From: Octopus vulgaris
Lineage: Eukaryota
DNA: 64,000 bases
NCBI GenBank assembly: GCA_951406725.2
Contig: OX597816.1
Span: forward strand, 9,796,001-9,860,000
Direction: 5' to 3'
The notes below the pieces were generated by a model. It was not told the DNA's origin and did no database searches. It was given only the letters and a program-made list of their open reading frames with translations. The number at the start of each line of letters is the position of its first letter. Positions within the stretch are counted from its first letter, which is position 1. Below, piece by piece: positions 25,387 through 45,825 of this stretch. A program made the translations under genes and the position numbers.

Positions 25387-26868
25387 TTACATATATATAC
25401 ATATATATATATGTATACACACGTTTTATATGTATACCATCATCATCATCCTTTGTATGCAAGTATTTAGGTATGTGTCTATGTGTACACGTGCATACAC
25501 ACATAAATGCTTATGTGCATTACCAATGCATACACGCATACACATGAGTGTCTCTACAGAGGAGCGCATCTTAATTTCGGTAAATTCCTATGTTACCAAG
25601 TTCCAGAGAATAACTTTGCAACTTTACATTTTAGTACAAAGTAAAATGTTCCAGCTCCATTATTAATGATCAGACTTAAGTATCTTTTTCATTTTTTTCC
25701 TAACAAGCCATAAAAGTAAACACTTCCAGTAAGTAGATATATAAAAACAACACCAAAAATTGAAGCTCTTAAAAAAGAATATACATAAATGGCCTGTGTG
25801 AAAAAAAACAGAGTTGACGATAAAATGGTTCCGTCTTTGTACACAATTGGTTCTGTATCTTGTTACAAAGGCAGATAAGCAGCACTTGGTTAACTCGACT
25901 GGTTTGGAAGAACATGTGGCTTTATACTGTGTGGAACAATATTAATGGGTTACTCTCTCTCTTTCTCCTCACTCTCATTTATTTACTCTCTATATATTTC
26001 TCTGTCTATCTCTTTCAATTCTCTCTCTCTCTCTCTCTCTTTCTCACTTGTTCTCACTCTGGCTTTTCATTCTGTATTTTTCTCTCTCTTCGTATTATTC
26101 TCTCTCCTTCATTCCGTCGCTTTTTCTTTCTCTCTTTCTCTGAATTTGTCAGGAATTTACTCAGAATCCTGAGATATTGGAAAATACCTTACAATATTTT
26201 TTCCTACCTGTTTCTGTTTCATGTTCAAACCCTGTTGATGTCTGCCTTTCCTCCCTCCGAGGTTGATTAAAAAAATTACCCATCCTGTACTGCGGCCAAT
26301 TTAATCAACTAACACCCTCCATACCTCTGGGGCCATGTCTCTAAGTTACAATCAATTATTTCTATCACTCAATTTTTCAGTCTATCTCCCAAACTTTCCA
26401 TTCTAGTTTTCACTCTATTCCTCTTTCTTTCACCCTCAATTCTCTTCTAGCATTATCATTCTTCTCTCTTTCTCTCTCTCTTACTCACACACACACACAC
26501 ACACACATGCTTGCTTACTCTCACCACTGTTTCTTTCTCTTCCTTTCTCCCATGCTCTCTCTCCCACACTCCCATCCATGCTCTTTCTTTTTCACTCTCC
26601 CACTTTCACTTTCTCTTTCACAATAATCCCCTCCACCCACCTTGTTACAGTCTTTGCCTCAGTCCTCTTTCTTCTTCTTGTCTTTCATTTCCTTTTCTCC
26701 TGAGCATCAATACATAACACAATAAATTCTACAGAAGGCACCTGTTACTGTTGTTCAAAAATCTTCTATCCTTCTCTGCATTTTTCTCCACCTAGACTTT
26801 TCTTTTGCCCCATCTTTGTACACACATCTCCATTTCTCTCTTTTTCTCCATTAGATACAAATATATAT

Positions 26869-27246
26869 ACTCTTTTACTTGTTTCAGTCATTTGACTGTG
26901 GCCATGCTGGAGCACCGCCTTTAATCGAGCAACTCGACCCCGGGACTTATTCTTTTGTAAGCCCAGTACTTATGCTATCGGTCTCTTTTGCCGAACCGCT
27001 AAGTAACAGGATATAAACACACCAGCATCGGTTGTCAAGCAATGCTAGGGGGACAAACACAGACACACAAATGCATATATACGACGGGCTTCTTTCAGTT
27101 TCCGTCTACCAAATCCACTCACAAGGCTTTGTTCGGCCCGAGGCTATAGTAGAAGACACTCACCCAAGGTGCCACACAGTGGGACTGAACCCGGAACCAT
27201 GTGGTTGGTAAACAAGCTACTTACCACACAGCCACTCCTGTGCCTA
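26869..27246 (-). mobile_element. SINE family A
   Basis: Full-length homology. Confidence 0.9.
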
Positions 27247-27390
27247 TATGTTAATGAAAATATATCTAAGACAAAGTATACAAATCTGAACAGATGTAAG
27301 TGAAGACGCATGTAAGCTTATAGCTCTCTGTAGAAATGAGATCTATACCTGTGTGTGTGTGTGTGTATGTGTGTATATATGCATGGATAC

Positions 27391-27453
27391 TTTTTAACTC
27401 ATTAACGTTTGTTTCAGCTTTAAAGCTGTGGTCATGCTGGGGCACCACTGTTG
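27391..27453 (-). mobile_element. Retroposon 3' tail (variant of the SINE A tail) fused to the U6 3' end
   Basis: Sense CAACAGTGGTGCCCCAGCATGACCACAGCTTTAAAGCTGAAACAA compared with SINE A AAAGGCGGTGCTCCAGCATGGCCGCAGTCAAATGACTGAAACAA. Confidence 0.8.
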
Positions 27454-27551
27454 AAAAAAACATGGAATGCTTCATGAATTTGCATGTCATCCTTGTGCAA
27501 GGGCCATGCTAATCTTTTCTGTATCTTTCCAATTTTAGAATATGTACTGCC
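27454..27551 (-). pseudogene. U6: U6 snRNA retro-pseudogene, lacking ~11 nt at the 5' end
   Basis: Minus strand reads GGCAGTACATATTCTAAAATTGGAAAGATACAGAAAAGATTAGCATGGCCCTTGCACAAGGATGACATGCAAATTCATGAAGCATTCCATGTTTTTTT. This gives about 10 mismatches to the vertebrate U6 sequence as recalled. The ACAGAGA box is mutated to ACAGAAA. Confidence 0.95.
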
Positions 27552-28430
27552 ATATCAGTATGTGTGTATATATGCATGTCTGGGTGCATGTGAGTGTGTA
27601 AATATATGTGTGCATGTATGTTGTGTATGTGTAAGTATACATGTGTATGTATATATATATATATATGTGTGTATATATATATACATATGTGTTTGTGTAT
27701 ATATAATATACATACTCACAATTCATGTGTTGATTAAGCCCCTTCCAAGAGACCTTGGCTTTACTTTATAATCCTTTATTACTGTTGATCCTAGTTACCC
27801 CTCTCAGATACTTACAAGCTATTTGTTTTGGCTTATCGAAAGTGTTACACAAACACTATAAATCTAGTTAAAATCACACCAACAACCTTTGCCATACTTT
27901 ATAATTGTTTATGCAAACAAACTCTTCAAATCATATCTTTGCTTGGGTCTTATTGTATTTGTTTATCTTCCCTCAAACTAATAAGGATTTCTGATTTAGA
28001 TACACAGTCATCAACCTCAGTATTTTTTTACACATGGCCTGCATTTTCAGGGAGGGAGTTTATTTATTTAACCCTGAAAAGATGGAAGGCAAAGTCAACC
28101 GTGGCAGAAATTGAACTCAAAACATAAAGACAGATAAAATGTTGCTAAGCAATTTGCCCAGCATTTTAACAATTCTGTCAGCTTGCCACCTTATGAATAA
28201 TACTAATTAATACAACAGTTTTCAGTTTAGACATGAGGTTAGTACTTTTAAGTGGAGGGGTAAGCCAATACTGTTGATCTCAGTACATGACTGGTACTGT
28301 ATTGTATAAAGCCTGAAACAATGAAAAGCAAAGTTGATCAGGAGTTGAACTCAAAATATAAATTGTCCAAAAGCAAATCTCTGTAAGCATTTTCCTTGAC
28401 ATAGGAATGATTCTGCCACCCTGGTCCTAA

Positions 28431-39172: not shown

Positions 39173-39400
39173 AACACACACAAGTAATATATACAAATAT
39201 ATATATAAAAAAAAAAACAAACATACTCTATATGTACACATGCATATACACACACACACATACATTTAAGTATATATATATAGATAGATAGATAGATACA
39301 TACATACATACATACATTCATACCTGTATGCCTGTTAGTGTGTGTTAGTGTATTGTGTAAATTTTCCTTGAATATATATATATATACATATATATATATA

Positions 39401-44365: not shown

Positions 44366-45825
44366 ATCGGACTTTCATTGTTTATAATCTGTGCCTGTTT
44401 TTTGGTTACGAAATAAGCTACACAAAACGTGTTCTTGAATTACATTTTTTTTTCTCTTTTATCTTTTACTTGTTTCAGTCATTTGACTGTGGCCATGCTG
44501 GAGCACCGCCTTTAGGTACATGTATATACTTTATATATATATATATATATATATATGAGTTGAAAACTTTCTTTTGATATTTCACTTAATATCTATGTTC
44601 TATGTAGAAAGATGGCATCTCAGCTACTAGCAGTTGCAACCTGTGTAATCGAGACAGCATTTTTAAATTTCAAAATCTGTACCTTTGAATTGTGGGTGTA
44701 GTTCATCCAAGTAGCTTCAGTACAGTTTCCATACACCCAATTTCAATCAGAAGGTATAGATCAACCTTAGGCTATAGAAAATGATTTTTTCCCCAGATTA
44801 GACACATAGGGATGAAACATGGAGGTTTGTTGTTGCAAAACAAATGCTTTAACCATTTAGCAACCCTGACTCCAACCAGTTAATGACTATTCTACTACTC
44901 TCTCCGCTACCATCTTATTGCAACTATGAAAACTATTCCTTTTATTCCCTCATCCCACCTCTCTCTGCTGTTAGCTCCTCATCAGTCACTTTAGGCTGGT
45001 GCTACAGAAAAGTACTCTATATGCACTGTAAAATGTTTGGCTTTAGGAAGGGCATCCAGCCATTGCAACTGTGCTAAATTACACATAGAAGCATGACTTG
45101 GTCCTCTAATTTCATCAGATTCTGTCAAACTGCCCAACCTATGCCAGCATGGAAACTAGGCATTAAATGATGATGATGATGATGATGATCACACATACAT
45201 GCATGTATCATTGTGTTTTTATGTTAATTATTCCATGCATGCTAACACAAAACTTGCCATTAGTTGCAGTCCTTTATCTCATCCTTCAGGGATTTTAGCC
45301 TCTTGAGATCAGCTTTCATTACATCTTCCTCCATCTTCTTGTGCAGGTTTCTTCTGCTTGGATTGTTTGGCACTTCCTTGCTCAGCTGTCATCCTTCATC
45401 TGCATCACCTGTCCATAACATTAAAATTTTCTCTCTTGCACGCTACAGCAATACCTGTTATGTGCAGTTTCCCCCTCAGCTTATCTCTGCCCTGTCATTG
45501 GTGCACTCTAGCATTACACATCTAATGGAACATGATCATTTCATTTCTTTGCTTTCACACTTTCTGCATTCAGCATCCAGTTTAAACTACCTTGCAGCAT
45601 TACACTTTGTACCCAACACAATACTGTCTGCCTTTAACTTGGCAAAAGAACCCATCCCTTTGTTGCTGCAAAAACAATTGTTTCATAAGCTTTTTATCCT
45701 CTTTCAACATTCATACCTTTTTAAGAACTTTAGGAGAGTAAATCAAATAGTTTTGAAATAAAATCTATAGTTTAGATTCATTTTCTTTTTTGTGGTATAC
45801 ATGTACATGCTTATGTGTACATACA

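Follow-up and report, generated by a model that had tools for sequence, protein, structure and literature searches.

Chimeric retrocopies in which U6 snRNA is joined to the 3′ part of a LINE have been described in mammals, where a full sense U6 and its T-run are followed by L1 sequence within one target-site duplication (PMC4476161, PMC6789731, PMC11838501); there, the L1 part is variably truncated and the joint shows no motif, U6/Alu fusions are rare, and tRNA partners are mostly antisense halves. The human joints lie throughout L1 without a motif (PMC6789731), and human L1 chimeras with tRNA halves, 7SL and other RNAs are rare and often antisense (PMC11838501). Fusions of U6 with L1, L2, RTE and their SINEs have been described in vertebrates, among them U6/L2 and U6/Mon-1 in platypus and U6 with L1, L2, RTE or AnolisSINE2 in the anole; the partners are tail-recognising LINEs or their SINEs, the LINE part is short and the duplications are small or absent, as in octopus, but platypus U6 is almost always 5′-truncated, only vertebrates are covered, and the section on them mentions no fixed joint, tail-only class or other Pol III heads (PMC4476161). 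The bipartite and tripartite WEIRD-MGL (MINE) chimeras of Magnaporthe resemble the octopus units in their preferred-site jumps, double jumps and non-vertebrate host; there, however, six hot spots at GCC(A/U) are spread along the LINE and one RNA is the main passenger (PMC2104539).

A second group of related systems concerns the birth of SINEs, in which a Pol III head is combined with a hairpin-bearing LINE tail and template switching is the origin proposed: TguSINE1/PittSINE (tRNA and CR1 tail; PMC5729268), the CR1-tailed SINEs of bivalves (PMC4824008, PMC11481361) and 5S- and 7SL-headed SINEs (PMC5786205, PMC7245038). These are amplified families whose birth is reconstructed, whereas the octopus genome holds many unamplified one-off fusions, most of them with the terminator T-run still between head and tail. 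Finally, non-LTR reverse transcriptases (RTs) including those of R2 and L1 are reported to add untemplated bases and to join RNAs serially end to end (PMC8594491, PMC10830420); this was shown in vitro and for other clades. U6–LINE chimeras in vertebrates and fixed switch sites in a fungus are already on record. What appears to be new is the pattern, in which a fixed minimal tail, or a SINE in full, is fused end to end with Pol III transcripts. Compared with mammalian U6/L1, the octopus units meet the LINE at a single point, have entire SINEs as partners as often as tails, and include sense pre-tRNA, pre-5S and 7SL captured together with their trailers; compared with WEIRD-MGL, they use a single site, located at the base of the terminal hairpin, for passengers of many Pol III kinds. 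No published report of cephalopod U6 chimeras was found, nor one of tail-only copies as a prevailing class or of a single joint at the minimal tail for all Pol III RNA classes, in a search that did not extend to subscription journals, supplements or Repbase/SINEBase, which may describe them.

The locus under study lies in a 64,000-nt stretch of the Octopus vulgaris genome (contig OX597816.1), called the window below. Read on the minus strand, it consists of a 21-nt repeat, a full U6, a run of seven T (T7), a 68-nt tail and the 21-nt repeat again, the U6–tail chimera itself occupying 27386-27561 within this duplication (Table 1). A preliminary description of this DNA had recognised a near-complete minus-strand U6 ending in T7 and joined in sense to a tail, and this is borne out: Rfam model RF00026 matches 27456-27561 (minus) over its whole length (98.4 bits, model positions 1-105 of 105) and is the sole Rfam match in the 64-kb window. 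The U6 is identical to the gene copy L043 in 94/107 columns, with 6/13 differences at CpG, and is therefore a decayed copy. No extra base separates T7 from the tail. The tail, first put at ~60 nt with homology to SINE A, is indeed homologous to the SINE A tail and measures 68 nt once its terminal repeats are included. The variable 5′ truncation and poly(A) of the strict U6/L1 type are replaced here by a fixed joint and short tandem repeats. The locus is a real U6–LINE chimera and a dead copy, with no sign of function.

Table 1. Features of the U6–LINE chimera and its flanking repeats, in window positions
Feature	Position	Strand	Remarks
Target-site duplication, copy at 3′ end of unit	27365..27385	.	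21 nt, in CA/TA microsatellite
LINE 3′-terminal 68 nt	27386..27453	-	From an APE+RT LINE, subfamily with TTTAAA-loop second hairpin; 7-nt leader, two hairpins, AAAC, A-rich terminal repeats
Tail hairpin 2	27415..27428	-	Two pairs with changes on both sides
Tail hairpin 1	27430..27449	-	Outer pair lost at the locus through a CpG-type change; fixed joint just 5′ of this hairpin
T7 run closing U6	27454..27460	-	Last 1-2 T also readable as LINE sequence
Full-length U6 snRNA retrocopy	27454..27561	-	Without U6 upstream promoter; ~12% diverged from gene copies
Target-site duplication, copy at 5′ end of unit	27558..27578	.	Overlaps first 4 U6 positions

The 21-nt direct repeat had been described as low-complexity, as bracketing the unit and as standing 5-6 nt from its ends. 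The first two points stand; the spacing does not, as the repeat overlaps the start of U6 at one end and at the other is separated by 3 nt from the final A-rich terminal repeat (as judged by eye). Two exact copies of the 21-mer are present in the window, with one further match at 39239 carrying two mismatches, and none of 100 shuffles gave three matches, although such shuffles do not model microsatellites. Because the repeat is of low complexity and sits in a CA/TA microsatellite, it is, taken alone, fair rather than strong evidence that a single insertion took place. A complete SINE A at 26860-27230 (minus), 135 nt from the U6–tail unit, is a separate insertion.

The core of the tail is common to the abundant SINE A, and 18 core motifs are present in the 64-kb window. 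Fifteen of these lie on the minus strand and 3 on the plus strand, a bias which may reflect a host intron. A second tail-only insertion, with a SINE A-type tail cut at the same boundary after a TA run, is found at 44487-44507 (minus). The attribution of the locus tail to the 3′ end of SINE A was rejected: its source is a LINE subfamily in which an RT reading frame adjoins the 3′ UTR. The exact second hairpin of the locus tail occurs 39 times in the genome, and in 11 of the 30 copies read the same tail follows LINE RT coding sequence (seen with tblastn in 9, by eye in 2); the other 19, this locus among them, consist of the tail only. A sister subfamily (subfamily A), with 3,653 exact tail matches in the genome, encodes an APE endonuclease and an RT with no RNase H match, and its ORF and the 120 relatives listed for it contain PF14529/PF03372 and PF00078 only. 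The protein search gave no clade name, as the 120 listed relatives carry no informative names. From its C-terminal motifs, we provisionally take the LINE group to be CR1-like; the CR1-group traits seen in this partner LINE are APE and RT without RNase H, and a 3′ hairpin followed by short tandem repeats. Its 3′ UTR is very short and its tail ends in such repeats. In molluscs, tails of 35-61 bp are reported to be common to SINEs and to CR1-Zenon, Nimb, CR1 and L2.

Both hairpins are kept among eight aligned tails (six LINE types and SINE A), with 96.6% of cells paired. Three of the 12 pairs are changed on both sides, a count reached by 22/500 shuffles, so that this alignment lends modest support to the predicted hairpins; single-sequence folding of the locus tail was unremarkable (z -1.3). 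An Rfam scan for known ribozymes in the LINE 3′ end (L163, 60-600) returned three chance-level matches, none of them a ribozyme; a self-cleaving motif of an undescribed kind may still be present.

How general such fusions are was assessed by a census based on an exact 31-nt U6 pattern, which has 207 matches in the genome; the first 74 in genome order were read. Twenty-six of the 74 carry the two-hairpin tail (21 events once the six-copy segmental duplication L036-L041 is collapsed), in agreement with the initial proposal that a 3′-tail-recognising LINE had made a U6 chimera. Another 26 are fused precisely to the 5′ terminus of a complete tRNA-type SINE (15 to SINE A and 9 to SINE B by script, L067 and L077 by eye), and 8 are genes with a TATA-like element upstream (L042-L048, L064). 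The remaining 14 are a mixed group. Two are U6–U6 tandems (L057, arranged head to tail, and L058). In L060, L072 and L091 the partner is a third repeat family, joined at the same point in two of the three. L059 has a short duplication around U6 and a SINE B-type end of 12 nt, L085 joins SINE A internally, L087 is joined to a piece of SINE B in inverted orientation, and five copies are inverted duplications of U6 (L074, L075, L081, L088, L093). L100 is the one clear U6 copy without a partner. In 52/74 matches, or 52/66 non-gene copies, U6 is thus joined in sense either to the tail of a LINE or to the 5′ end of a SINE, where window densities lead one to expect ~0.4 chance neighbours; the chance adjacency named earlier as a possible refutation is not borne out. 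Exact U6–tail joints number 65 genome-wide, against none for a reversed-pattern control. All these census counts are lower bounds, because the patterns allow no mismatch. An earlier DNA search, in which 30/30 loci read were U6 plus tail, was biased by its query and was not used for frequencies. As side observations, seven of the U6 genes form a tandem array (L042-L048; G000:C1:139.42 Mb) with a spacing of ~1.1-1.4 kb; the retrocopies show at least three 5′-stem variants, the gene of one of which was not found; and in L058 U6 is joined to another 3′ end. Other LINEs may have fixed joints of their own (L060/L072/L091, L058, L059).

Two of the possible origins of these units can be weighed on the census. 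If they descended from one or a few master chimeras, that is, from a U6-headed SINE family of the SINEU-like kind, their uniform overall size and their many dispersed copies would be accounted for. However, 44 loci (from the biased and the unbiased set together) show 41 distinct joints; the U6 variants, of which three were roughly assigned, occur in free combination with either SINE and with as many as five types of tail; L036-L041, the one set of identical copies, also shares its flanks and so represents a segmental duplication; and the chimeric copies lack the upstream sequence of U6 genes. Descent from a master chimera is therefore very improbable.

Alternatively, the unit could result from two insertions, a U6, tRNA or 5S copy having been inserted first and a LINE tail or SINE later at its T-run, through the preference of the endonuclease. 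Tails and SINEs are dense (18 tail motifs/64 kb) and insertion sites are A/T-rich, which would make such events conceivable, and most tail chimeras have no clear duplication. Target-site duplications are more telling for U6 joined to whole SINEs: in 9 of the 22 units with both ends found (5 further units in which no end was found were dropped), a complex 9-24 nt repeat brackets the whole unit, against a mean of 1.0 and a maximum of 4 in shuffled pairs, whereas the sign of a nested insertion, in which the U6 3′ end would recur behind the SINE, is present in 1/22. L054 contains a SINE B head, a full U6 and a full SINE B inside one 24-nt duplication. The genes bear no tail, whether the 8 U6 genes, the 5 cluster 5S genes that were read or the clustered tRNA-Leu genes, and partnerless U6 copies are rare (L100). 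Several units (L278, L347, L376) moreover have the same microsatellite on both sides. A history of two insertions is accordingly hardly credible. The bracketing repeats are found in 8/9 SINE B units and in 1/13 SINE A units, and from these longer duplications SINE B seems to be moved by another LINE. Among 44 tail chimeras, duplications of at least 8 nt, mostly TA runs, were found in 15 (control mean 7.1, maximum 11), and complex ones in 3, which is not above the control (mean 1.6, maximum 5); since duplications are rare around tail chimeras, the 21-nt repeat of this locus is unusual for this LINE.

U6 is one of several captured RNAs. Among the first 30 of 63 tRNA-Leu matches, 10 show the trailer followed by a tail or a whole SINE A; several of these chimeras keep the intron and a few leader bases, two have no intron and five are 5′-truncated. 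The match between chimera L239 and gene L240 covers the body, the intron, the trailer and 5 nt of leader, and ends there. Of 47 scored 5S matches, 34 belong to one cluster and all 13 others were read: 7 are joined through the trailer to a tail, 4 to a whole SINE, and 2 form a head-to-tail pair (L352/353). The trailers of these dispersed copies match the cluster genes, and exceptions among the tailed ones are an internal deletion in L347 and a tail starting inside hairpin 1 in L379. The cluster itself (L345-L374; G000:C4:35.2-35.3 Mb) is of mixed orientation. A search for a T-run followed by the tail gave 17 distinct loci among 30 matches (4 with U6, 6 tRNA-derived, 2 SINE-derived, 5 headless), and 20 more, picked to skip two known U6 cases, included one full 7SL, five tRNAs and 14 loci without an Rfam head. 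In L344 the passenger is a fragment of tRNA-Pro whose CCA end precedes the tail. With ARAGORN, neither the window nor 49 tail loci yielded a tRNA, and a relaxed intron run was mostly noise; the tRNA heads that this program missed were found by Rfam.

Whatever the RNA upstream, the tail is entered at nearly the same point. The parent is known for 38 joints (six further ones, of a type for which no parent was found, were left out); in all 38 the partner contributes 4-8 nt 5′ of the GGTGC core, and in 23 of them 7 nt, which places the joint ~1-4 nt before hairpin 1. The same boundary ends most copies that carry no partner: among 71 subfamily A tails taken consecutively, at most 9 nt are kept in 47 (5-7 nt in 36 of these), 10-60 nt in 2 and more in 22. 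Tail-only copies are the commonest product of both LINE subfamilies (47/71 in subfamily A, 19/30 in that of the locus), whereas a lone SINE A is seldom cut there (2/90 bystander copies; Fisher p 3e-20 for 47/71 against 2/90, the two samples having been drawn differently). SINE A-type U6 chimeras in the census have 16 joints at the SINE 5′ end, 5 events at the tail boundary and 1 elsewhere; therefore, almost all joints fall at one of two kinds of place, the base of hairpin 1 or the native 5′ terminus of an RNA. Three near-identical loci, L279, L282 and L283, have the same flanks on either side of a tail and belong to a larger duplicated unit.

The boundary could in principle be set at the DNA level, if AT microhomology in TA repeats let the cDNA anneal early to the target, the RNA heads being incidental. 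A TA run overlapping the initial ATGG of the tail does precede many tail-only copies. Nevertheless, the boundary is the same for U6, tRNA and 5S joints, for tails with CAAC or CAGC leaders, and outside TA repeats in L170, L173, L197 and L199, and AT-rich patches 10-60 nt further in are used in 2/71 copies only; an origin in target pairing is thus most unlikely.

The reading that we prefer, with a probability of about 0.72, is that the locus is a single insertion, in which the LINE RT copied the two-hairpin tail and then jumped to the 3′ end of a U6 RNA. In this mechanism, the LINE protein would bind the two-hairpin tail and prime on a nicked target, often a TA/CA repeat; cDNA synthesis would proceed until the template ends, a few bases past hairpin 1 or at the natural 5′ end of a SINE RNA; and the enzyme would often add a few untemplated bases. 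The cDNA would then either be joined to target DNA, yielding a tail-only copy or a whole SINE, or be extended by a jump to a free RNA 3′ end, mostly that of an unprocessed Pol III transcript (U6, pre-tRNA, pre-5S, 7SL or another SINE), from which a further jump would be possible. End-to-end template jumping of this kind was reportedly described by Bibillo and Eickbush in 2004. The weakest step of the jumping model is the reason for synthesis ending at hairpin 1. A pre-existing trimmed RNA end, whether left by decay stopping at the protein-bound tail or by a cut, has about an even chance of being the cause; a stop or release of the RT is somewhat less probable, and any other cause improbable. 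The much higher tail-only rate in the LINE than in the SINE leans slightly towards a trimmed LINE RNA.

Bases from neither parent are present in 28 of the 38 joints. The first of them is C in 15 and A in 13. A C directly after the T-run (15/28 inserts) would fit an added dG pairing with the terminal U, although tailing of the RNA could be an alternative; inserts that begin with A fit purine-biased untemplated addition poorly and could stem from RNA tailing or slippage. Also speaking against the jumping model is the lack of a recognisable RNA head in 5/17 and 14/20 of the T-run-plus-tail loci.

The preliminary description had left both RtcB ligation and template switching open. According to the former, a nuclease would cut the LINE or SINE RNA 5′ of hairpin 1, leaving a 5′-OH, and RtcB would join it to a U6 ending in a cyclic phosphate before the chimera is inserted. 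The fixed joint often falls between a pyrimidine and A, a position where a cut leaving a 5′-OH might fall, and 10/38 joints, like the present one, are clean. The T7 joint of this locus fits ligation equally well, and this locus alone cannot separate jumping from ligation; it is the family evidence that leans to template jumping. The 5′ ends of SINE, U6 and 5S RNAs should bear a triphosphate or a cap, and pre-5S, pre-tRNA and CCA ends are expected to bear a 3′-OH. RtcB, the proven route for human U6/L1, is reported to need a cyclic phosphate and a 5′-OH, to join precisely and to refuse a 5′-triphosphate (PMC6789731). In octopus, by contrast, the natural SINE 5′ end is joined in 26/74 U6 copies, U6 and 5S also serve as downstream partners, the upstream partners include pre-5S, pre-tRNA trailers and a CCA end, and extra bases are common. 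On the strength of these partners, of the double fusion in L054 and of the extra bases, we favour template jumping and hold ligation to be unlikely. A hybrid, with U6–tail units made by ligation and the other chimeras by jumping, is possible.

The value of the locus is as an entry to a genome-wide pattern of fusions of tails and SINEs to Pol III transcripts. Accounts of the step by which a tRNA, 5S or 7SL head gains its LINE tail are usually reconstructions based on SINE families that are already complete; since many separate fusions are preserved here, all at the minimal tail, this step becomes countable and could be rebuilt in vitro from one enzyme and a 65-nt RNA. The joints also allow the two models for U6 chimeras, template jumping and RtcB ligation, to be tested against each other in natural material, and they delimit the minimal RNA element that this LINE requires. 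If the fusions arise by RT hopping between RNAs, as is likely, they would show the birth of new SINEs. A more speculative extension, which we regard as possible but doubtful, is that this LINE group routinely sheds a ~65-nt two-hairpin tail RNA and that its RT stitches this tail, or SINEs, onto new Pol III transcripts, a standing factory of proto-SINEs of tRNA, 5S, 7SL and U6 types whose terminator-free copies could be transcribed and mobilised; were this true, the birth of SINEs would have been caught in the act.

Copies of such a kind do exist. L376 (G000:C2:83482110-83482228) combines a near-perfect 5S (114 bits) with an intact tail, and L262 a full tRNA with an intact tail, in both cases with no run of four T between head and tail, which by their sequence makes them candidate transcribable proto-SINEs. 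L262 and L250 are tRNA-Leu(CAA) copies without intron, with a 3′ trailer, joined to tails; they are either spliced precursors or copies of an intronless gene that was not seen. The tRNA passengers L189, L339, L344 and L321 are cut just 3′ of the T-loop A, presumably position 58; this would fit an RT stop at m1A58, which would mean that their template was modified RNA. Lastly, inverted duplications lie directly beside U6, tRNA-Pro plus tail or LINE ends in L074, L075, L081, L088, L093, L340/L341 and L148, in the form of fold-back or palindromic insertions.
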